Below, one piece after another: positions 14,861 to 26,292 of a stretch of 64,000 nucleotides of DNA. The position numbers and the translations under genes are program-made. The stretch comes from Terriglobia bacterium (GTDB taxonomy: Bacteria > Acidobacteriota > Terriglobia > 20CM-2-55-15): assembly GCA_965198225.1 (NCBI GenBank), contig CBDAOY010000007.1, positions 1,013,545-1,077,544 of the forward strand, written 5' to 3'. The notes beneath the pieces were generated by a model that searched no databases, was not told where the DNA came from, and saw nothing but the letters and a program-made list of their open reading frames with translations. The stretch's first letter is position 1. Every line of letters begins with the position of its first letter.

Positions 14861-15679
14861 TCACAAGTTCAGTTGATCGAGCCCCCACGCGGCGCGTTCG
14901 CGCACGCTTTCATGGACGGCTCCGTTCTGCCTCAGTTGTTCGAAAACCCCGATAGACCGCTGCTCCCGGATGTCGACCAGAAAATTGATCAATGAGATCT
15001 GGACCAGTGGCGACTCCTGCCGGGCCAGGGAATTCAAAACCCCCTCCCGAACGGAGGGCGTGTCGCTGAATTCCACGAGAGCATCGATGACGGCGAGCCT
15101 CACGTTCACGTTGGGGTCGTAGTTCAGCGTGCTCAACAGGGAAGTCAGGATCTCTTGGTTCGGTCGAGCGATTTGCGAAGTCCAGTTCACGCCACGCAGG
15201 CGCTGGCTGGCCGATTGCTGTTCGAGAAGGGAGAGGGCGACGAGCTGTCTGAGGCTCTGGACTTCTCCCTCCAGAGTGCGCAGGTCCCCGTTCGGAGCCT
15301 CTGTCACCATGAACTGCGTACCAACGACGAGTCCGACGACGAGAAGCGTCAGTGCCGAACCGAGCTGAACCAGCGGTTGGCTGGGCCACCATCCCGCTAT
15401 CCACTCATTGAGAGATTCGTGCCATCGCGGTCCTGGATGGGCGTTGGCCAGGCCTTCCTCGTAAGCCTCCAACATGGCTTCGAAACGGGCTCGAACTTTG
15501 GGTGAAGGTTCCTCCGTCGGGATCGAACCGAGCTTCGTCCAGATGCCCCTGAGGCTATCCGCCTCCTGCTGGCATGCCGAGCAGGTGTTCCAGTGAGTCT
15601 GGAGGGCTGTCTTGGAGAGCTCATCCAGACTATCGGTCAGATAATCGGGGAGTTTTTCTCTTACTTTTGCGCATTCCAT
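14861..15679 (-). CDS. Anti-sigma factor (zf-HC2, TM helix, HEAT-like domain)
   Basis: MEC...HWNTCSAC zinc motif, one TM segment, DPNVNVRLA HEAT-like; overlaps the sigma factor gene. Confidence 0.85.
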   Translation of the reverse strand: MECAKVREKLPDYLTDSLDELSKTALQTHWNTCSACQQEADSLRGIWTKLGSIPTEEPSPKVRARFEAMLEAYEEGLANAHPGPRWHESLNEWIAGWWPSQPLVQLGSALTLLVVGLVVGTQFMVTEAPNGDLRTLEGEVQSLRQLVALSLLEQQSASQRLRGVNWTSQIARPNQEILTSLLSTLNYDPNVNVRLAVIDALVEFSDTPSVREGVLNSLARQESPLVQISLINFLVDIREQRSIGVFEQLRQNGAVHESVRERAAWGLDQLNL

Positions 15680-16245
15680 GACTTTTTCTCACCTGCAATC
15701 CTGAAATAGACCTTCCTCAGTTCCTGCGTTGCCCGGAAGACTCGAACCTTGACGGTTCCGGTGTCGCAGCCCATGACCTCGCCGATCTGATCGTATTTCA
15801 TGTTCTGAAACCGGCTCAGAATCAACACCTCGCGCTTCTCGTCGGGAAGATCCGCCAGAGCCCGTCGCAACAGCGCGGCCTCCTGCTTTTTCCCAAGGTC
15901 CTCGGGCGCGACCGACGGGCTCATCACCTCCAGCAGCGTGTCTTCGAAGTAGTACTCCCGCTTGTGCTTGTTGAGGTGGTCGATCCGGGCGTTCCGCGCG
16001 ATGTGGTACATCCACGTCGTGAACCGGCTGCTGGCTCGAAACGTAGCACGGTACTTCAGAATCCGGAAGAAGACGTCTTGAACGAGATCCTCGCTCACTT
16101 CGCGGCTGCCGGTCATCCGGATGAAGAAGTCGAACAGCTTCCTGTGATTCCGGTCAAACAGCACCCCCAGCTTGGCCACCTGCCCCTTGCTCACGTCGAG
16201 CATCAGGGCATCATCGCTGACGGAACTGACTTCCTGCGCCTTCAT
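15661..16245 (-). CDS. ECF RNA polymerase sigma factor
   Basis: EDLVQDVF, FTTWMYHIARN, LPDEKREVLIL, GTVKVRVFRA. Confidence 0.95.
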   Translation of the reverse strand: MKAQEVSSVSDDALMLDVSKGQVAKLGVLFDRNHRKLFDFFIRMTGSREVSEDLVQDVFFRILKYRATFRASSRFTTWMYHIARNARIDHLNKHKREYYFEDTLLEVMSPSVAPEDLGKKQEAALLRRALADLPDEKREVLILSRFQNMKYDQIGEVMGCDTGTVKVRVFRATQELRKVYFRIAGEKKSWNAQK

Positions 16246-16888: not shown

Positions 16889-16924
16889 ATAAAATAGGGA
16901 CAGACTCCTGTGTCCCTATTTTAT
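16889..16924. repeat. Perfect 14-bp-stem hairpin (REP-like or terminator)
   Basis: ATAAAATAGGGACA-GACTCCTG-TGTCCCTATTTTAT. Confidence 0.65.
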
Positions 16925-16957
16925 CGGCAACATTTTGAACCACTTAAAATGCCGGCT

Positions 16958-17650
16958 ATGAAGATCTCTGTCATCATCCCAGCCTACAACGAAGCGGACC
17001 AGATCGGGCTGACACTGGACGCCGTCCACGCCGCAGGCCTTGATGACGTTCTGGTGGTCGACGGCGGCAGTGCCGACGAAACGGTTCTGCACGCACAGGC
17101 CGCCCGGGTGACGACGATGGAGGGTCCCCGGGGAAGGGCGAGCCAGATGAACGCCGGCGCGCGAGTCAGCAGCGGGGAGGTCCTGCTGTTTCTCCACGCC
17201 GACACGCGCCTGCCGCCGGACGCGGGCCGGCTTGTCGAGAACGCCCTCGCGGACGATCGCGTCCTCGGTGGTGCCTTCCACCTGCGATTCGACTCCGGCG
17301 GCTGGCTCATGCGTCTGGTGAGCTTCCAGACCAACGTGCGTTCCTACATTCTCGCCCCCTGGGGGGATCAAGCTCTTTTCGTCCGCCGCACCTTCTTCCT
17401 CGAAACCGAAGGCTACCGGCAATGGCGCTTGATGGAGGACGTCGAAATGGCTCATCGCATCAAGAAGAACGGACGATTCACAATGATCCGGACCCCGGTG
17501 GTGACTTCCGGTCGACGATTTCGCGAGCAAGGCTTCATCCGAAACGGAGTCCGCAACCAGATGCTGATGGCGGCATACTATGCAGGCATTGCGCCGGACC
17601 GCCTGGCTCGATTCTATTCCTATGACCGGCGAACAAGAGAGGAACGCTGA
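16958..17650 (+). CDS. GT2 glycosyltransferase, TIGR04283-type (arsenosugar/rSAM-selenodomain-associated)
   Basis: ISVIIPAYNE, VDGGSAD, GRASQMNAGA, LFLHADT, GDQALF, LMEDVE, TSGRRF. Confidence 0.9.
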   Translation: MKISVIIPAYNEADQIGLTLDAVHAAGLDDVLVVDGGSADETVLHAQAARVTTMEGPRGRASQMNAGARVSSGEVLLFLHADTRLPPDAGRLVENALADDRVLGGAFHLRFDSGGWLMRLVSFQTNVRSYILAPWGDQALFVRRTFFLETEGYRQWRLMEDVEMAHRIKKNGRFTMIRTPVVTSGRRFREQGFIRNGVRNQMLMAAYYAGIAPDRLARFYSYDRRTREER

Positions 17651-18330
17651 TGAAGGCGCCGCTGGCGACCTCGCTTGTCATCATGGCCAAGGCGCCACGT
17701 GCCGGCCGCACGAAAACGCGCCTGTTTCCCGCTTTGACCCCTGATGAAGCCGCCGGTTTGTATCGGTCGATGTTGCTGGACACGATCGAGCGGCTCCGTT
17801 CGCTGTCCGGGTTCGAGCTCTGGCTGGCATTCACGCCGGAGGACGAACGGGCCTGGTTCGAGACGAACATCGATCCGCCGATCCCGTTGATGCCTCAGCG
17901 GGGCGACGATCTGGGCCAGCGTATGCACCACATCGTCGAAGACAGGTGCTCCGATGGAGCTGAAGCTGTGCTGCTCGTCGGAACCGACCTGCCCACGCTT
18001 CCCGCCGACTATGTGCGTCAGGCGGCGGATTTACTGCACGAGGACGACAGGGTCGTCCTCGGCCCGACCGAAGACGGGGGCTACTACCTGATCGGATTGT
18101 GCGAGCCGGACATCCGTCTGTTCGAACGAATCGAATGGAGCACGGATTCGGTCTTCCAGCAGACCGTCTGTCAGGCCGAGGCGGCAGGAAAGTCCGTCTC
18201 GACGGTTCCGTCCTGGTTCGACATCGACGAGCCTGCCGACCTCGAACGTCTCCGGAGCGCGCTCGAACACAGCGACGAGCAAACCCATCCCCCGCACACC
18301 GCGAACTTTCTGGCGTGTCTCGGAGGCTAG
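17650..18330 (+). CDS. CofC-like transferase, TIGR04282/DUF2064-type
   Basis: IMAKAPRAGRTKTRL, QRGDDLGQRM, GTDLP, VLGPTEDGGYYLIG, IEWST, DIDEPADL; translationally coupled to the GT2 gene. Confidence 0.9.
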   Translation: MKAPLATSLVIMAKAPRAGRTKTRLFPALTPDEAAGLYRSMLLDTIERLRSLSGFELWLAFTPEDERAWFETNIDPPIPLMPQRGDDLGQRMHHIVEDRCSDGAEAVLLVGTDLPTLPADYVRQAADLLHEDDRVVLGPTEDGGYYLIGLCEPDIRLFERIEWSTDSVFQQTVCQAEAAGKSVSTVPSWFDIDEPADLERLRSALEHSDEQTHPPHTANFLACLGG

Positions 18331-18369: not shown

Positions 18370-19014
18370 TCACTCCTCCGCTCCCGAATCTCCTTCAGTT
18401 GCGTCCTCCGTGAACTCCGCCAGCGAACGTCGCGCCATCTGTGTCAGCAGCACGGCGACGATCACGGTAGCACCGAGCCCGAACCAATAGAGGACGGTTT
18501 CTCCGGTCGTGGCCTCGCGTTGACCCGACAACATTTCCGCAATGTTGAAAGCGACGGACCCGATGTAGACGTACATCGCGGTGGCAGGGAACATTCCCAG
18601 AAAAGACGCCAATACATAGTCACGCAGGCGGACCCGCGTCAGGCCCAGCGAATAGTTCAGGAAGACGAAAGGAAAGACGGGCGACAGGCGGAGGAGTGTG
18701 ATCAGCTTGAATCCCGATTCTTCCGCGGCCTGGTTCAGCCGGTCGAGGAACGGCTGATTGCGGATCCGCCGCTCTATCCGGTGGCGGAACGCGGTACGAA
18801 CGAGTAGAAACGCGATCGTCGCGGCCAGGACGCTCACGGGAGAAACCAGAGCCGTTCCGAGAATCGGCCCGTATATGAATCCGGCGATCAGCGTCATCGC
18901 AGAGCCTGGAATCAGGGCGATGGTTGCAACTACGTATATAAGTGCGAAAGCGAGGGGACCGATCCAGCCCAGACCCCGGATCGTTTCGACAGCGATTATG
19001 ATCCAGTCGTCCAT
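18370..19014 (-). CDS. TVP38/TMEM64 (VTT/DedA) membrane protein
   Basis: IPGSAMTLIAGFIYG, LLRLSPVFPF, LNYSLGLT, GMFPAT; ATG at 19014. Confidence 0.9.
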   Translation of the reverse strand: MDDWIIIAVETIRGLGWIGPLAFALIYVVATIALIPGSAMTLIAGFIYGPILGTALVSPVSVLAATIAFLLVRTAFRHRIERRIRNQPFLDRLNQAAEESGFKLITLLRLSPVFPFVFLNYSLGLTRVRLRDYVLASFLGMFPATAMYVYIGSVAFNIAEMLSGQREATTGETVLYWFGLGATVIVAVLLTQMARRSLAEFTEDATEGDSGAEE

Positions 19015-19123
19015 GAGTAAGTGGCCACCAGGCCATATCGCGCATGGCTTGCGCACGAACTCGACGTGGGCCATCGGCGTGAAGAAAGCGCCCGGCTCCA
19101 CAAATGTCGCCGGGTGCGGCCTA

Positions 19124-21577
19124 TCAGCAGCACTCGCCGGGTTCGCAACACTCAACGCTGGACAGCGCCGCGTCAGCATCCTTGGCCATCACCAGGAAAG
19201 ATCCCGCGTAAGGCTCTCGCGACAGTTTCGCAGCGGTATCGGTGCACACCTGGACGGGTTCGTTTCGGGGAAAGAGGTGGCCTTCCTCGTCGACGACCGC
19301 CTTCAGCGGGCCCAGATAGACGGCGCGCTGGCCTTCGAAGTTGCACACTCCGTTCTTCCCGAACTTGAAGCCCTGGATGATCAGCGAGTAGAAACGGTAG
19401 CCTTCGATCTCTTTCCAGAAGGTTTTCTCGACGAGCGACAGGCCGTAGAAACCCACCTGCTCGAGCATGGCGAAGTATTCATCTTCGGTCAGTGCTCCCG
19501 AGACGCACTCTCCCCACAGCCGGGGGTTGGCTTTCATGTGGTGGGGAATCTTCGATTCGGACACCGTGTCGGAGATGATCGCGCGGCCGTGATTCTTCAG
19601 AACCCGCCACATCTGCGAAAGTACGCGGCGTTTATCGGGCGAAAGGTTGATCACGCAGTTGGACGTCACGATATCGGCCTTCTGATCCTCCAGCGGAAGC
19701 TGTTCGAGGTATCCGCGCCGGAATTCGACGACGTCGTACCCGAGGGATTCGGCGACGATGCCCCGATTCCGTTCGGCCCGCTCGATCATTTCCGTCGTCA
19801 TGTCGATGCCGATCACACGACCGCTGGACCCGACGCGCTGTGCCGCGATAAAGCAGTCGATACCGCCTCCCGAACCGAGATCGACGTATGTTTCGCCCGG
19901 CTTGATGTCGGCGAACCGAATCGGGCTGCCGCAGCCGTAGGACACCTCGACGACTTCCTTCGGCAGTGCCCGAAGCTCGGCGGGGTCGTAGGCGGTCGGA
20001 CAGCACAGCGCTTCCTGAGGCTCGACGGCCGCCTGGGCGTAGAACTGGCGGACTTTCTCACGCGATCGTTCCAAGTCGACGGAGAGGACGCACGTGGAAC
20101 GGGATGTGGCGATCTCGAACCCCTCCGCTTCAATGGTTTCCATCTCAGAAAGCGATTCACCCATCGCGGCCACGACGGTCGGGGAATCGTATCCGGATGG
20201 GCCCTCATGGCTCTTGTTCTCAGAGGCGATCTGCTCGATCGCTCGGAGCAGCAGCCATTCGTGAACCTTCGAAAACGGGTCTTTTCCAAGGACGGTGCCG
20301 GAGTAGAAGAATGAATGTTCGACGTCACCGCCGCCGCACACGTAGCGCAGGTAGCATTCCTGACAGTCTTCTTTCGCGATGACGCTGGCTCGGCGCAGCG
20401 CGCGCGCGCGCGCGGATGTTTTCCAGATTTCCGCCAGCGGCTGTTCCTCGACGTTGCCCATAAGCAGTTCGGGGACACCGGCCAGCGCCGCGGAAGGATA
20501 GACGGTGCCGTCCGCGTAGACGCAGCAGCTGCTCGTGGCCGCGACCGACAGGTCCATCTTGACCCCGCGTCGGCCCTGAGCCCTTTCCCGGGCGACCTCG
20601 TAGTTGTCGAGCTCGATTCCCTTCGAAGATGCGTTTTCCAGGTATCGTTCCAGCATCTCGATGATGTCGGCGGTGAACGGACTCTGCATCTGGTCGTCTT
20701 CCAGAGCCCTGCCCTGTTTGTGGTCCCACAGCAGGTGATGACGCCGGACGCCGAGTTTGTCCAGGAACTCCGGGAATCGAGGAAGCGTGTCGAGGTTCGA
20801 GCGAGTCACGACAGTGGACACGGTCGGTTCAAACGCGGCGTCCAGCAGGGCGCCGATGCCTTCGACGGTTCGCTCGAACCCGGATCCGCGGATCGCGTGG
20901 TGGGTCTCGCGGTCGGGTCCGTCGATGCTGACCTGTAGGGCCACGTTGCCGTTCGCGGCGGCTTTGAGATTGGCCAGGGTATCGCCCCGGAAGAACATGG
21001 CGTTGGTCAGGATGACGAGTTCGCTGTCGGTGCAGATGGCCCGAACGATGTCGATCAGGTCGCGCCGTAAGAACGGCTCTCCACCGGTGATGTAAAATTG
21101 CCGAACACCCATCTGTTTCGCGTCGTCGACGATCTTCAGCCATCGATCAGTTGGAAGTCCCTCGATCCCTTTCGGGGAAGAATCCACGAGGCAGTGGGCG
21201 CAAGTCAGGTTGCAGCGGTTCGTCAGGTGCAGCCACATCTCTTGCGGCTCGTGGCGCTCGATCAACGCCCCGCGACCCGGATAGGTCGGGTGCTGGAACG
21301 GCTCGCTTCTCAGGAAGTCGGTCCGCAGTGCATGGTTGAGCAGCGTGCTGACGTCGAGCCAGGCTTCGGCCCAGTCCTTGCCCGCGTGGGACCGGTAGCG
21401 GCCCACAAGGTCCGAGACCCTCCGCTGTCCGTCGATCCAGCCGAGTATTTCGACGCCCGCTCGGTTCGTCACGATCCAGTTTGGCGCCTCGGGGTCGAAC
21501 ATCAGTCCGAATTCTCCGATCAGCCGCTCTTCGTAACGTGGGGGCGCGTGAAGTACCTGTTCAGGCAAGATAGTCAT
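19124..21577 (-). CDS. Fusion of PqqD-like domain, radical SAM, degenerate SPASM and ArsM-type SAM methyltransferase
   Basis: CNLTCAHC, TGGEPFL, SIDG; CQECYLRYVCGGGD; LCCP, SYGCGSP, DLGSGGG, GIDMT, SNCVINL, WGECVSGA; C-terminal CCEPGECC. Confidence 0.9.
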   Translation of the reverse strand: MTILPEQVLHAPPRYEERLIGEFGLMFDPEAPNWIVTNRAGVEILGWIDGQRRVSDLVGRYRSHAGKDWAEAWLDVSTLLNHALRTDFLRSEPFQHPTYPGRGALIERHEPQEMWLHLTNRCNLTCAHCLVDSSPKGIEGLPTDRWLKIVDDAKQMGVRQFYITGGEPFLRRDLIDIVRAICTDSELVILTNAMFFRGDTLANLKAAANGNVALQVSIDGPDRETHHAIRGSGFERTVEGIGALLDAAFEPTVSTVVTRSNLDTLPRFPEFLDKLGVRRHHLLWDHKQGRALEDDQMQSPFTADIIEMLERYLENASSKGIELDNYEVARERAQGRRGVKMDLSVAATSSCCVYADGTVYPSAALAGVPELLMGNVEEQPLAEIWKTSARARALRRASVIAKEDCQECYLRYVCGGGDVEHSFFYSGTVLGKDPFSKVHEWLLLRAIEQIASENKSHEGPSGYDSPTVVAAMGESLSEMETIEAEGFEIATSRSTCVLSVDLERSREKVRQFYAQAAVEPQEALCCPTAYDPAELRALPKEVVEVSYGCGSPIRFADIKPGETYVDLGSGGGIDCFIAAQRVGSSGRVIGIDMTTEMIERAERNRGIVAESLGYDVVEFRRGYLEQLPLEDQKADIVTSNCVINLSPDKRRVLSQMWRVLKNHGRAIISDTVSESKIPHHMKANPRLWGECVSGALTEDEYFAMLEQVGFYGLSLVEKTFWKEIEGYRFYSLIIQGFKFGKNGVCNFEGQRAVYLGPLKAVVDEEGHLFPRNEPVQVCTDTAAKLSREPYAGSFLVMAKDADAALSSVECCEPGECC

Positions 21578-21756
21578 GGGGTGTCTCCTGATTCAATGCG
21601 AAGGGCAAGTTCTCCGAACGAATCATTTGATCGACTTTTCTTCAGCCGATATTGTAAGCGAAGTCACCGAGATGGGAAGGGTAGCGTGGATGTCAAAGAC
21701 GAGAGAGGTGAGGGGCGCCGGCAGACGATGACGCGACCTGCCGGCGTCTGCGCCTT

Positions 21757-22415
21757 ATCCCGGGCGTCGACGCATCTCTTCCCGGGTGATGAATCCATCA
21801 TCGTCCGCGTCGAGGCGGTCGAAGGCCTCAGTCGGTCGGGTCCACTCGTCACGAGAAACCTTGCCGTCGCCGTCTTCATCCATCTGGAGCATCGCGGCTC
21901 CCCGGCCACGTCCGCCTCTGCCCGGGCGGGAGTTCTGCATCTCTTCGAGAGTGATGAAGCCGTCGCCATCGGCGTCCATGGTCTCGAACATCTGCGCGGG
22001 ACCCGGAAACTCCTGCTGCGACACGCGTCCATCGCCATCGCTGTCGAGCCCCTGGAAACGGGCTTGAGGGTCTGCGCCTCTTCCGCCTCTATCCCGGGCG
22101 TCGCCATCTCTTCCCGAATCCATCATCGTCCGCGTCGAGGCGGTCGAAGGCCTCAGTCGGTCGGGTCCACTCGTCACGAGAAACCTTGCCGTCGCCGTCT
22201 TCATCCATCTGGAGCATCGCGGCTCCCCGGCCACGTCCGCCTCTGCCCGGGCGGGAGTTCTGCATCTCTTCGAGAGTGATGAAGCCGTCGCCATCGGCGT
22301 CCATGGTCTCGAACATCTGCGCGGGACCCGGAAACTCCTGCTGCGACACGCGTCCATCGCCATCGCTGTCGAGCCCCTGGAAACGGGCTTGAGGGTCTGC
22401 GCCTCTTCCGCCTCT
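21757..22415. repeat. Tandem duplication of the EF-hand-coding 3' end of the selenoprotein gene
   Basis: 21757-22090 (334 bp, intact) and 22091-22415 (325 bp, with 7-nt and 2-nt deletions). Confidence 0.9.
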
Positions 22416-23246
22416 GCCGCGGCCGCCCCCGAATTGCCGCTGGATTTCGTCACGAGCGAGGAGACCATCATCGTTTCGATCGAGCCGGTCGAACGTCTCG
22501 CCGTCGCCCGTCCACTCTTCCCGTGAGATTGTACCGTCCTCGTTCGTGTCCATGACGCCCATACCGCCCGCAGTCCCGGGCCTCTGCCCCGGCCGAGGGC
22601 GCATACCACGCATGCCGCGGCCGCGACGCTGTCCCTGTTCCTGTCCGTAGGCGGTGATCTCCCCTCTGAGAGCGACCTCGAGCGCTGCCCTGGCTTCGGG
22701 GACATCGAACCCGGCCGGCCCGGGGCGTCCCTTGAAGGCGATGGTGCCGTCGGAGCCCACGACATAGATCCGGTCGGGAAACGCGGCGTACGCATTCGCC
22801 GTCCGGTCGTCGATCTTGTCCAGAATGGTCGGCATCGAGATGTCCAAGGCGGTCGTACAGATGTTGGCTGCTTCCTGGCGCTGCTCGTCGGTTTTGGCTT
22901 GTTCGATCAGGATGCCGTCGATAACATTCGCCGCTCCGAGGTTGCCGTCGGTGGGATGCGCTTCTCGAATGTAGACGAAGAAGAAATTGGCGCGGTCCTT
23001 GTAAGCCTGGTACCAGTTTTCGATGTCCACGACATCGCGGCGGAACGGGCCTCAGGTATAGCTGGCGAAGATCAGCGCGGTCGGTCTGCCCGTCATCTCA
23101 GAAAGCGTAATCTTTTGCTTTCCGTCTTTTGTACTGAGCGTGAAATCAGGCGCCGTATCTCCAGGCGTGGGGCCGCCGCCTCGCCGCTGGGCCGTGGCAG
23201 GGCTCACCAGGACGAGGACCAATAACGCAGACGCGAATGTTCTCAT
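22089..23246 (-). CDS. Iodothyronine deiodinase-like selenoprotein with signal peptide and EF-hand tail (Sec at codon 65)
   Basis: RBS GGAGGAG and ATG at 23246; ORFs 23052-23288 and 22089-23030 are in one frame joined by TGA, giving FASYT-U-GPF; then YIREAHPTDG, YAAFPDRIYV, KGRPGP; DxDxDG EF-hands. Confidence 0.88.
23021..23037 (-). promoter_or_regulatory. Candidate bacterial SECIS element
   Basis: CGAUGUC-GUG-GACAUCG hairpin; apical loop starts with GU, 21 nt downstream of the UGA at 23052-23054. Confidence 0.75.
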
Positions 23247-24058: not shown

Positions 24059-24364
24059 ATGCCTCGAAACTACATGACATATCCGTCCGGTCTGGTCCTG
24101 CAGGCAATCGCTTCGGGGCATCGGTATGGTTTCGATGTGATGGATGTGACGGGATTGCCGAGTGGTACGGTTTACCCGGCACTTCGGAAGCTGGAACGAG
24201 AGGGCTATGTCCGTTCCAGGTGGGAAGGCGAAGATGTGGCCCGCCAGGCAGGGCGTCCACCGCGGCGTTACTACGAGGTTAGCGGCCCTGGCTCGGCGGC
24301 CTTGACCCAGCTGCTGAAACGGTTTCCAGGACTGGCCCGGGCCCTTGCCGCGGAGGTCTTGTGA
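24059..24364 (+). CDS. PadR-family transcriptional regulator
   Basis: YGFDV, GTVYPALRKLE, GRPPRRYYEV. Confidence 0.92.
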   Translation: MPRNYMTYPSGLVLQAIASGHRYGFDVMDVTGLPSGTVYPALRKLEREGYVRSRWEGEDVARQAGRPPRRYYEVSGPGSAALTQLLKRFPGLARALAAEVL

Positions 24365-24975
24365 GGTGGGCAGGCGGCGAGCGGTCTCTCCGCGTCTGCC
24401 TGTTGTGGATTCGCGCTCTGTCGTTCCTCGTCCCGCCCCCGGGCCGGGACGAATGGATGCGGGAGTGGCGTGGCGAGCTTCTGCATCACTGGAGTGAGTT
24501 CGAGACAGGAGTTCAAAAGTCCCGTGCTGCAAGATTCGATTTGTTCCTACATTCGATGGGCGCCTTGCCTGATGCACTGTGTCTGCTGCGTCAGGAGTGG
24601 AGACTGGACATGCTGATGCAGGATCTGACCTATGCGGTACGGACGCTCGGCGCTCGACCGGGCTTCACCTTCGTAGTGATTTTCATTCTGGCGCTGGGTA
24701 TCGGGGCCAACACCGTCGTGTTCAGCGTCGTCGATGCCGTCCTGTTTCGACCCCTACCGTTTCCCGAGCCGGAGAGGCTGGTTGCGATCTGGGACGAAAA
24801 CACCCAAAAGTCGATGCTTCGTCAGGGTCCGGCGCCCGGCAATCTGCTGGACTGGCGTGACCAGTCACGGGTGTTCGATGGTATCGGAGCCTGGTACGCG
24901 GGCGAGCCCAGGACTGTGCGCGACGAGTCCAGTGCGGAGAAAGTGTCCGCCACTATAGGATTTTATTATGTCTAA
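24361..24975 (+). pseudogene. ADOP/MacB-like ABC permease truncated by element insertion
   Basis: QDLTYAVRTL..RPGFT, LALGIGANTVVFSVVDAVLFRPLPFPEPERLV; ends after about 200 aa at an abrupt switch to AT-rich sequence near 24952. Confidence 0.85.
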
Positions 24976-25073
24976 TAATATCCATAAGTCTTATTTATAT
25001 CAACAGTATATCGTCCTAGACAATCCAGCGCCGTCTGGTATAATCCAAGCCTGTTGGGGGATATATTGGGGGA
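24946..25073. other. Putative attL of the integrative element
   Basis: TCCGCCA (like a tRNA 3' end) at the junction, an AT-rich tract, and TTGGGGGA direct repeats at 25054 and 25066 upstream of the integrase. Confidence 0.55.
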
Positions 25074-25113
25074 GTGCTGGAGTGCCTCTGCCCCATCGGT
25101 CGAGGGCTCTGCA

Positions 25114-26292
25114 ATGGCCATTCACAAACTCTCCCAACGCAAGGTAGACACCGCCGGTCCCGGCAAATACGAAGACGGCGGCGGGCTCCGCTTGGTGGTG
25201 TCCAATTCAGGCGCCAGGAGATGGGTCCTGCGTTACACCGTCCACGGCAAACGCCGGGAAATGGGTCTGGGCCGTTATCCCGATGTCGGGTTGGCCGATG
25301 CCCGCACGCAAGCGCTACGGCACCGGAGGCAGTTGGCGACGGGCGTAGATCCCATCGCAGCCCGCCGGGCGGCCCCGGAGACGCTACCCACCTTCACCAT
25401 CTGCGCCGCCCGGTATATCCGGGCCCATCGACGGAGTTGGCACAATGCCAAGCACGCGCGGCAATGGGTCCGGAGCCTGAAGACCTATGCCCGGCCCGTC
25501 ATCGGGGCCAAACGGGTCGACGCCATTGAGACTGAAGACATTGTAAAGATACTCTCTTCGATCTGGAACACCAAGACCGAAACGGCCAAGCGCGTGCAGG
25601 GGCGCATCGAAAATGTCCTGGACTTCGCCGCCGCGCACCAATACTGCGGTCCCCTGAACCCGGCCCGCTGGCGGGGCCATCTGGACAAGTTGCTCCCGAA
25701 GCCCTCCCGGGTGAAGCAAGTCACCCACCACCCGGCCATGCCGTATCCCGAGGTGGCGGACTTCCTGCAGGAGCTGTCCGGACACCGGAGTGTATCGGCG
25801 CAGGCGCTGCGGTTTTTGATCCTGACCGCCACGCGCACCAGTGAAGTCTTAGAGGCGCAGTGGCCGGAAATCGATCGGACCGCCGGTATATGGATCCTTC
25901 CCGCCTCCCGGATGAAAGCCCGACGGGAACATCGAGTTCCCTTATCGGATGCGACCCTGGCGGTTCTGGAAGACCTACCCCGCATGGCAGGCCACCCGTA
26001 TGTCTTCGCCGGATCTCGCCACGGACGCCCTCTGTCGAACATGGCCCTACTGAAATTGATGCGAGACATGGGATATTGCGTTGAGGGTTCCCGGGCTCAC
26101 TACGTGCCGCATGGATTTCGCTCCAGTTTTCGGGATTGGTCCGGCGAGGTGTCGAGCTTCCCGCGAGAAGTTGCGGAAATGGCCTTGGCCCACGTGGTGG
26201 AGAACAAGGTGGAAGCGGCCTACCGGCGGGGGGATCTGTTCGCCAAACGGCGCAGCATGATGCAGGCCTGGGCCGACTACCTCAAGAAGTAG
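25114..26292 (+). CDS. P4-type tyrosine integrase with arm-binding domain
   Basis: DGGGLRL, MGLGRYP; catalytic R (TATRTSE), K (MKA), HGFR, LAH, AAYRRGD. Confidence 0.95.
   Translation: MAIHKLSQRKVDTAGPGKYEDGGGLRLVVSNSGARRWVLRYTVHGKRREMGLGRYPDVGLADARTQALRHRRQLATGVDPIAARRAAPETLPTFTICAARYIRAHRRSWHNAKHARQWVRSLKTYARPVIGAKRVDAIETEDIVKILSSIWNTKTETAKRVQGRIENVLDFAAAHQYCGPLNPARWRGHLDKLLPKPSRVKQVTHHPAMPYPEVADFLQELSGHRSVSAQALRFLILTATRTSEVLEAQWPEIDRTAGIWILPASRMKARREHRVPLSDATLAVLEDLPRMAGHPYVFAGSRHGRPLSNMALLKLMRDMGYCVEGSRAHYVPHGFRSSFRDWSGEVSSFPREVAEMALAHVVENKVEAAYRRGDLFAKRRSMMQAWADYLKK

Follow-up and report, generated by a model that had tools for sequence, protein, structure and literature searches.

A fusion of a radical SAM enzyme with an arsenite methyltransferase in the place of ArsS and ArsM: a candidate one-chain organoarsenical synthase

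What reaction might a protein catalyze that combines, in a single polypeptide chain, an enzyme of the radical S-adenosylmethionine (SAM) type that resembles peptide maturases with an arsenite methyltransferase? The question is raised by a gene in a stretch of 64,000 nucleotides from the genome of a Terriglobia bacterium (Acidobacteriota; GenBank assembly GCA_965198225.1, contig CBDAOY010000007.1, positions 1,013,545 to 1,077,544), in the following called the window. To our knowledge, ArsS and ArsL are the only radical SAM enzymes that form arsenic-carbon bonds. According to two reports, ArsM draws on the methyl C-S bond of SAM, whereas ArsS acts on the adenosyl C-S bond via a radical and converts the trivalent dimethylarsenical DMAs(III) to 5'-deoxy-5'-dimethylarsinoyl-adenosine (DDMAA; PMC13598754; 10.1101/2024.02.01.577332), and ArsL uses the third C-S bond for As-C formation (10.1101/2024.02.01.577332). 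The cycle of ArsS is described in the first of these as redox-neutral, with an arsenic-centered radical re-reducing the radical SAM cluster (PMC13598754). With moderate confidence we consider the fusion protein of the window a bifunctional organoarsenical synthase that stands in for ArsS and ArsM together, where we infer both the metalloid and the product. Such a second route to compounds of carbon and arsenic is probably used by many uncultured bacteria.

The gene encodes a genuine single protein of 817 residues, in which an RRE/PqqD-like domain, a radical SAM core and what is left of a SPASM region precede a complete ArsM (Table 1); a search of the genome with this protein returned the gene itself as a 100% match. 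A first-pass annotation, made from the sequence alone, had proposed this anatomy, and its four parts including ArsM hold, except that the SPASM region is reduced and does not have the full set of seven cysteines. All motifs quoted there were located in the translation (NRAGVEILGWIDGQRRVSDLV at residues 38-58, LCC at 524-526, YGCG at 547-550, SNCV at 639-642 and WGEC at 688-691), as was the CC...CC end of the protein (ECCEPGECC, residues 809-817). The four-domain anatomy is correct, because Pfam, AlphaFold, Foldseek and the matches of 13 of 36 family members to PF05402 (PqqD) agree. In the window protein Pfam finds Radical_SAM at residues 118-257 (E 4e-22), SPASM at 348-409 (E 1e-7), Methyltransf_31 at 558-707 (E 3.5e-34) and, weakly, PqqD at 26-86 (E 6e-3, 17.3 bits, under the cut-off of 23.4). 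An alignment of 36 fusion family members with 45-80% identity, on which the AlphaFold model was also built, shows that C122, C126 and C129 as well as T164-G165-G166-E167 are invariant in all of them, confirming the complete CxxxCxxC radical SAM core of the earlier reading. Within the RRE-like domain W34 and G41 are invariant. The PqqD/RRE-like nature of the N-terminus, weak in Pfam alone, is backed by the 13 members that match PF05402 individually (best E 6e-8) and by the structure model (mean predicted local distance difference test score (pLDDT) 86.2, predicted TM-score (pTM) 0.85), in which residues 16-85 form three strands (16-20, 23-28, 33-37) and then three helices (39-47, 54-65, 69-85), that is the RRE/PqqD topology. 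Moreover, Foldseek superposes residues ~1-480 on the whole chain of CteB (5wgg; 486 columns, TM-score (TMt) 0.70) and likewise on TigE (8vpo; 493 columns, TMt 0.68), and also finds SuiB and SkfB.

Could the fusion itself be a peptide maturase? In a pathway to ribosomally synthesized and post-translationally modified peptides (RiPPs) the RRE would bind a leader peptide, the radical SAM-SPASM half would modify the peptide and the ArsM half would methylate it or load a metalloid on its cysteines. In favour of this reading, conservation extends to the RRE fold, the first 480 residues can be superposed on CteB, TigE and SuiB, and of the radical SAM models of NCBIfam the one for the sactipeptide maturase StsB matches best, with 139 bits well short of its cut-off of 625. 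The order of RRE, radical SAM and SPASM/twitch domains is that of CteB, TigE, SuiB (5v1t), SkfB (6efn) and PqqE/PqqD, with a TMt of ~0.7, whereas the identity to these proteins is only 14-22%, and the fusion differs from them in its gene context, its mosaic of auxiliary cysteines and the attached ArsM. Unfused relatives of 33-40% identity exist as well, one of them (in genome G055) with non-arsenic neighbours. A RiPP role is not supported, because no conserved precursor peptide, protease or exporter was found. At 81 loci, a conserved ORF (open reading frame) of 18-100 residues on the strand of the fusion was not found within 1.5 kb of it, a search that a distant precursor or one of fewer than 18 residues would escape, and neither a protease nor an ABC exporter is among the recurrent neighbour clusters of 80 fusion loci. 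Recurrent clusters of small ORFs (blastp-short, the same 81 loci) were considered as precursors and rejected, all being antisense or shadow frames of conserved neighbours. As the gene context is moreover the one common to ArsS/ArsM clusters, and as each of the auxiliary-cluster cysteine sets on which crosslinking maturases depend is missing from some of its relatives, we regard a RiPP role as distinctly improbable, and the suggestion of a peptide-modifying enzyme that installs a metalloid, one of two options offered by the first-pass annotation, is left without support.

The loss of these cysteines follows a mosaic pattern. The SPASM region of the window protein, like that of its close kin, has C352, a CxxCx5C triad (C405, C408, C414) and C496 only, and not the seven cysteines of a full SPASM domain with two auxiliary [4Fe-4S] clusters. 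Across the family the triad is found in 25 of the 36 members and missing in 11, C373 is found in 18 and missing in 18, and C479 is found in 19 and missing in 17. The 11 members devoid of the triad carry C352, C373, C479 and C496, and a few members carry all seven. C352 and C496 are kept in 36/36, and S494 is invariant. Judged from the alignment, no auxiliary-cluster cysteine set is conserved family-wide and the SPASM region is reduced and mosaic, which would argue against a crosslinking chemistry relying on such clusters. Since a chemistry of the ArsS type would be redox-neutral, auxiliary clusters would be dispensable to it, which fits cysteine sets that are not conserved. In NCBIfam the radical SAM part matches generic SPASM families only, far under their cut-offs (StsB, AhbD, NirJ2, MftC, PqqE); no model names the fusion.

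How complete is the methyltransferase? Compared with the crystallised ArsM and AS3MT enzymes (4fr0, 5evj, 8xt7), residues 512-809 cover essentially the whole chain: the family profile of this part matches residues 22-346 of CmArsM 4fr0 (E 6e-59) and, as the match reaches residue 809 (4fr0 residue 346), the ArsM C-terminal domain is present. The difference is that this copy forms the C-terminal part of a much longer protein. Foldseek aligns the C-terminal part with ArsM structures at a TMt of 0.62-0.66 (4fs8, E 5e-21). LCC, YGCG, SNCV and WGEC align residue by residue with CrArsM 5evj and human AS3MT 8xt7, and C525, C526, C549, C641, C691, C745 and C778 are all invariant in the 36 members, so that the four cysteine positions typical of As(III) methyltransferases, as read earlier from the sequence, are conserved throughout. 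These are the As(III)-binding and catalytic positions that we take to be C44, C72, C174 and C224 in CmArsM. The SAM-binding glycine motif D566-L-G-S-G-G-G-I-D574 is conserved, too. The first-pass annotation had staked its proposal on a PqqD-like N-terminus and a methyltransferase that groups with ArsM, and the protein is PqqD/RRE-like at the one end and ArsM-like at the other. In NCBIfam the C-terminal third of the protein is closest to the arsenite methyltransferases. Two more specialised models score lower than their cut-offs, NF040538 (arsinothricin ArsM) with 211 bits versus 500, matched to position 355 of 356, and NF038099 (arsenosugar ArsM) with 171 bits versus 400. In a tree of the methyltransferase domain, for which every second row of the fusion alignment (18 of 36) was combined with 15 other ArsMs, the fusion lies within the mainstream ArsM radiation, the backbone forks being open.

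The fusion ends in a cysteine-rich tail, which short stand-alone ArsMs do not have. Its terminal CC (C816, C817), usually found after C(C)-x-P, is present in 36/36 fusions and C811 in 34/36. The pLDDT is 62-68 near residues 500-530 and falls below 50 in the tail, and disorder is confined to the last 13 residues. A terminal CC is found as well in all four ArsS-adjacent ArsMs that were extracted (...GPGCC, ...PGECC, ...GGGCC), and a cysteine-rich tail is absent from seven of 11 other ArsMs, including the paralogue of the window's genome; some of these 11 may themselves be neighbours of ArsS. Vicinal cysteines of this kind are known from the C-terminal pair of MerA and from ArsD. By analogy, the disordered vicinal-thiol arm suggests a hand-over of a trivalent arsenical.

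Two side observations concern these other ArsMs. The ArsS-linked ones are of two very different sequence types, represented by L107 (G100) and L109 (G033) on the one hand and by L105 (G052) and L108 (G117) on the other; in the methyltransferase tree one type is set apart by a branch with a length of 4.5, and both keep the terminal GCC/ECC. The paralogue in the window's genome (G000, on a contig other than that of the fusion, C8:946701-947252 (-), L002) is a short stand-alone ArsM in an open frame of 282 residues with 46% identity to the methyltransferase of the fusion, and has neither the ArsM C-terminal domain nor the cysteine tail.

Is the fusion a peculiarity of one genome? A homologue search gave 404 matches, and among the best 120 of the 404 essentially all are fusions of ~815-866 residues, a few of them truncated by contig ends, with 45-92% identity and generic names only. 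A scan of one genome per species found at least 80 fusion loci in more than 10 phyla; the groups include Acidobacteriota, Nitrospirota, anammox Planctomycetota, Gemmatimonadota, Elusimicrobiota, Myxococcota, Chloroflexota, Thermodesulfobacteriota, Nitrospinota, Omnitrophota, Wallbacteria and Spirochaetia. Of 201 genomes sampled from the window's phylum, four encode the full fusion, namely the window's own (G000, 97% complete), G020, G107 and, in a divergent form, G184. A search restricted to proteins of 242-770 residues returned mostly contig-truncated fusions and a handful of apparently genuine unfused relatives (33-40% identity), beneath which generic SPASM enzymes follow with at most 28% identity. 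One of the 201 genomes (G055) encodes such an unfused relative of 512 residues and 36% identity, whose neighbours comprise a two-component system, TolB-like proteins and uncharacterised genes and do not include an ArsM; this split form was considered as a clue to function and dropped, its neighbours being uninformative for the fusion. A description of a radical SAM-ArsM fusion was not found in a full-text literature search, subscription journals and supplementary files lying outside its reach.

The gene neighbourhood provides the strongest hint to function. In the window the genes for a TIGR04283 family-2 glycosyltransferase (GT2) and a TIGR04282/DUF2064 transferase, both named "arsenosugar biosynthesis glycosyltransferase" by NCBI, converge on the pair formed by the fusion and a VTT/DedA membrane protein gene. 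For the 80 fusion loci flanking ORFs were clustered de novo and representatives annotated, and neighbours were counted by more sensitive tblastn within the fetched flanks; many of these contigs are short, and 36 loci span at least 18 kb. The commonest neighbour is a PiT/PHO4 transporter (32/80 loci), followed by VTT homologues (27/80), TIGR04283 GT2 and DUF2064 (TIGR04282) proteins (22/80 each), a MerA-like FAD-dependent pyridine-nucleotide-disulfide reductase of the PRK06370 type (20/80), DUF547 proteins (16/80) and extracytoplasmic function (ECF) sigma factors (15/80). Thioredoxin-like, DUF3179, GT87, DUF309, MerR and DUF3047 genes are less frequent, and a gene for a low-molecular-weight (LMW) phosphatase with ArsC-type fold lies inside two fusion operons (L031, L042). 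Of the 80 loci, 60 have one or more of six core families and 36 have two or more; for the subset of 36 loci with at least 18 kb the respective numbers are 26 and 18. Several loci form tight co-directional operons, as in L043, where PiT, fusion, GT2, DUF2064, DUF547, VTT and FAD reductase genes follow each other in this order; other fusion operons are L031, L033, L024, L042, L058 and L076. In several loci (L042:6354-7619, L034:5147-6493, L059:10813-12102) GT2 and DUF2064/TIGR04282 form one fused ORF of ~420-450 residues, supporting the notion that the two work together.

For comparison, six canonical ArsS loci from the window's phylum (L104-L109) were searched with the accessory families. The order of genes is GT2 - reductase - VTT - ArsS - ArsM - DUF2064 - ECF sigma in L105, ArsM - ArsS - DUF2064 - reductase - VTT - DUF547 - ECF sigma in L109, DUF547 - VTT - reductase - ArsS - ArsM - GT87 - GT2 in L107 and ArsM - PiT - ArsS - VTT in L108; L104 and L106 have parts of the accessory set around ArsS, and an ArsM match was found in neither of these two fetched stretches. 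Canonical ArsS loci thus carry the same accessory set, and therefore the fusion fills the position of ArsS and ArsM in one conserved cluster. The two systems share the neighbourhood and the slot therein, the co-occurrence with TIGR04282 and TIGR04283, and a radical SAM CxxxCxxC core beside an ArsM with terminal CC; they differ in that the fusion adds an RRE-like domain and a SPASM remnant and is covalently joined to its ArsM.

Does the fusion replace ArsS or does it come in addition? Three samples were compared, 50 fusion-bearing genomes, the 201 genomes of the window's phylum and 14 control genomes. Above the cut-offs, TIGR04283 is present in 47 of the 50 fusion genomes, TIGR04282 in 44 and ArsS in four. 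These counts include one unpublished genome (G236); without it they are 46/49, 43/49 and 4/49, and the conclusions are unchanged, as they are likewise independent of two unpublished genomes (G049, G024) among the 201 and of the G236 locus (L064) among the 80. In the 201-genome sample TIGR04283 is found above cut-off in 68 genomes (74 at E<=1e-40), ArsS in 45 and both in 32, and all four fusion genomes are TIGR04283-positive. Hence ArsS accompanies TIGR04283 in 43% of the positive genomes in general versus 8% of fusion genomes. Among the controls both transferase families occur in one of 14, Synechococcus elongatus, which is also the sole control with ArsS above cut-off. The window's own genome contains no ArsS (TIGR04167) above cut-off, its best match to this model being the fusion itself. 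The lack of ArsS in 46 of the 50 fusion genomes suggests that its function has been replaced, not supplemented. Slot and co-occurrence both favour the other option of the first-pass annotation, a one-chain enzyme that forms As-C bonds.

How could such a synthase work? As(III), perhaps derived from arsenate that is taken up by PiT and then reduced, would bind to the ArsM cysteines; where present, the LMW-phosphatase/ArsC-like gene would help to supply it from arsenate. SAM-dependent methylation would turn it into a methylarsenical in the trivalent state, most likely DMAs(III), or else its monomethyl counterpart MAs(III), which the flexible C-terminal CC...CC arm would carry to the radical SAM domain. 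There, a 5'-deoxyadenosyl radical may add to arsenic in an ArsS-like manner, giving DDMAA or a close analogue; in this specific adenosylation step by the radical SAM half we have less confidence than in the role as organoarsenical synthase as a whole. The TIGR04282 and TIGR04283 enzymes and membrane proteins might then process the arsenical product further, the FAD disulfide reductase could re-reduce the cysteines of the fusion, and the RRE-like domain would be a conserved relic of an ancestor that was a peptide maturase.

Several observations weigh against a fusion that replaces ArsS and ArsM. TIGR04167 (radical SAM (seleno)protein ArsS) matches the fusion with 50.8 bits versus a cut-off of 300 and over positions 2-144 of 303 only, the C-terminal Cys/Sec domain of ArsS being absent; because the radical SAM domain is unlike ArsS beyond the common core, the same chemistry cannot be assumed. 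In an enzyme acting on small molecules the conserved RRE-like domain with its W34 and G41 is unexplained. The match to the arsenite methyltransferase model PRK11873 (NF008823; residues 524-719, 241.8 bits, E 9e-72) falls short of the whole-protein cut-off of 263, though by little for a domain that forms part of a larger chain. The methyltransferase tree, with its open backbone, shows neither a sister relation to ArsS-linked ArsMs nor monophyly of the fusions. No core neighbour was found in 20 of the 80 loci, mainly from closely related Nitrospirota with unrelated flanking genes (PilT-like ATPase, DUF6812, Crp regulator, FmdE and chorismate synthase in the five clusters annotated, among which a B12-type radical SAM partner was looked for and not found); genomes of this type encode both transferases away from the fusion. 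As to the counts of genomes, kin are not independent, and the 50 fusion genomes are metagenome-assembled genomes of unstated completeness from other phyla than the background sample. ArsS and the fusion occur together in four of these 50 and in G184, and therefore the two are not strictly exclusive. Furthermore, the 201-genome sample contains 42 genomes that are TIGR04283-positive and lack ArsS; the fusion occurs in no more than three of these (G000, G020 and G107), and the unfused relative in G055. Six ArsS-less TIGR04283 loci were examined, four of which contain the GT2 gene alone; the other two, L114 (G136) and L115 (G015), have GT2, FAD reductase and VTT genes without ArsS, ArsM or fusion, L115 additionally with DUF547 and ECF sigma genes. 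As the accessory module thus exists alone, the name "arsenosugar" is no proof of arsenic chemistry. The rule that a TIGR04283 genome always has either ArsS or the fusion was considered and rejected, homologues of the radical SAM half being present in only four of the 42 ArsS-less genomes. ArsS plus ArsM on the one hand and the fusion on the other look like alternative add-ons to the accessory module, whose function may not depend on arsenic.

The first of these observations raises the possibility that the fusion acts in the same pathway context by another radical chemistry, using a different carbon radical derived from SAM, a sugar or a lipid, or modifying an organoarsenical made by the GT2 and DUF2064 enzymes to an undescribed product. 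Outside the core the radical SAM domain is unrelated to ArsS, its nearest structures being CteB, TigE, SkfB, PqqE and the sugar-nucleotide enzyme BlsE. Invariance of C352 and C496 where the presumed clusters are lost suggests a dedicated binding site, and the retention of ArsS in the four fusion genomes and G184 likewise speaks for this reading. ArsL provides a precedent that other C-S bonds of SAM are usable for the purpose, and resembles the fusion as an As-C-forming radical SAM enzyme, a non-canonical one acting in arsinothricin synthesis, with an ArsM partner (10.1101/2024.02.01.577332). It differs in transferring a 3-amino-3-carboxypropyl group, and the neighbourhood of the fusion is of the arsenosugar and not of the arsinothricin type; among the 25 best of 122 NCBIfam matches to the fusion there is no ArsL model. 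Against a different chemistry the common accessory set argues that a similar intermediate reaches the downstream enzymes in both types of cluster, and ArsS is missing from all other fusion genomes of the 50. On balance we think that a different chemistry is unlikely.

The occurrence of the accessory module without arsenic enzymes raises a second possibility, namely that the ArsM-like domain and the cysteine tail handle antimony, selenium or tellurium and that the cluster makes or detoxifies organic derivatives of these. The score just under the curated arsenite-methyltransferase cut-off would allow this, among the NCBIfam matches are many selenoprotein variants of the ArsM-like type whose substrates are not known, the gene of a deiodinase-like selenoprotein is found a short way upstream of the fusion, and MerR and MerA-like reductases are among the neighbours. 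On the other side, the four As(III)-binding cysteine positions of crystallised ArsMs are invariant, a transporter of the phosphate/arsenate type is the commonest neighbour and LMW-phosphatase/ArsC-type genes are found in two operons. In addition, the context is shared with ArsS, for which DMAs(III) is the established substrate (PMC13598754). We therefore consider a metalloid other than arsenic very improbable and retain the organoarsenical synthase as the preferred reading.

How might the domains of such a synthase cooperate? A tentative proposal, in which our confidence is low, joins these observations: the fusion would be a third independent radical SAM solution to As-C bond formation after ArsS and ArsL, built on an exapted RiPP-maturase scaffold. 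The RRE would no longer read a leader peptide and would instead dock the cysteine-rich C-terminal arm of its own chain or of a dimer partner, the arm would shuttle methylated As(III) from the ArsM site to the radical SAM site, and C352 and C496 would receive it there. The product may be an undescribed arsenosugar or arsenolipid of anoxic and soil habitats, made by anammox bacteria, Nitrospirota, Acidobacteriota and others. If the fusion is an organoarsenical synthase, environmental surveys that use arsS as marker would overlook a large share of the capacity for complex organoarsenicals, especially in soils, groundwater and oxygen-poor waters, and a peptide-maturase fold would prove to have been adopted for metalloid chemistry on small molecules. 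With both activities in one chain, the enzyme would also suit studies of the channelling of toxic trivalent methylarsenicals from one active site to another, and it could help to find out what the module of TIGR04282, TIGR04283, VTT, DUF547 and FAD reductase does.

Table 1. The fusion gene with its parts and the adjacent genes (positions in the window; residues of the fusion protein)
Feature	Position (nt)	Strand	Remarks
zf-HC2/HEAT anti-sigma	14861-15679	-	beside ECF sigma
ECF sigma factor	15661-16245	-	possible cluster regulator
TIGR04283 GT2	16910..17650	+	238.9 bits vs cut-off 182
TIGR04282/DUF2064 transferase	17650..18330	+	195.6 bits vs cut-off 134
VTT/DedA (TVP38-like) membrane protein, maximal ORF	18370..19179	-	Pfam VTT_dom E 9e-28; directly downstream of fusion
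Fusion gene	19124..21577	-	uninterrupted ORF, 817 aa; ATG start, stop codon 19124-19126
Cys-rich flexible C-terminal tail CC-E-P-G-E-CC, residues 810-817	19127..19150	-	alignment and pLDDT
Complete ArsM, residues 512-809	19151..20044	-	N-terminal CC, SAM-binding Rossmann fold, As(III)-binding Cys, ArsM C-terminal domain
Linker with conserved C496 (S-x-C-V-L-S), residues 461-511	20045..20197	-	alignment
Reduced SPASM/twitch-like region, residues about 340-460	20198..20560	-	C352 and triad C405/C408/C414
Radical SAM core, residues about 110-335	20573..21250	-	Pfam Radical_SAM; CxxxCxxC and GGE motifs
GGE motif, residues 165-167			in radical SAM core
CxxxCxxC motif C122/C126/C129 (CNLTCAHC, residues 122-129)	21191-21214	-	
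RRE/PqqD-like domain, residues about 13-90	21308..21541	-	beta3-alpha3; Pfam, family members, structure model
Shine-Dalgarno AGGAGA	21584..21589	-	read from sequence; spacer 6 nt to ATG at 21577

The genes around the fusion add some detail (Table 1). The conserved part of the VTT protein corresponds to about 18388-19014, and the overlap of 56 nucleotides between its maximal ORF and the fusion gene may therefore not be real. The pair of ECF sigma factor and anti-sigma factor possibly regulates the cluster. With the queries used, the window's genome has no homologue of PiT or DUF547 at E<=1e-15. Elsewhere in this genome (contig C6:145348-147516 (-)) there is a second gene pair for a VTT protein and a MerA-like FAD reductase, of the kind that is usual beside the fusion or ArsS.

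On the upstream side of the fusion, the deiodinase-like gene of a selenoprotein family (22089-23030 (-)) encodes EF-hand repeats. Its ORF matches NF038285 from profile position 225 on and does not contain the N-terminal part, as would be expected if an in-frame TGA codon for selenocysteine lies upstream. The 3' end of this gene is affected by a perfect tandem duplication of 300 nucleotides (21791-22090 and 22116-22415, spacing 325 nucleotides); the first copy ends the deiodinase-like ORF (stop at 22089), and the second, an out-of-frame remnant, makes up most of the sequence that separates this gene from the fusion. The duplication could be a recent event or an artefact of assembly. Further on, at 24361-26292, there is a fragment of an ADOP-family permease (111 of 803 profile positions, from the N-terminal side) and after it a tyrosine integrase with Arm DNA-binding domain; this appears to be the border of an integrated element at a distance of a few kb from the arsenic cluster.

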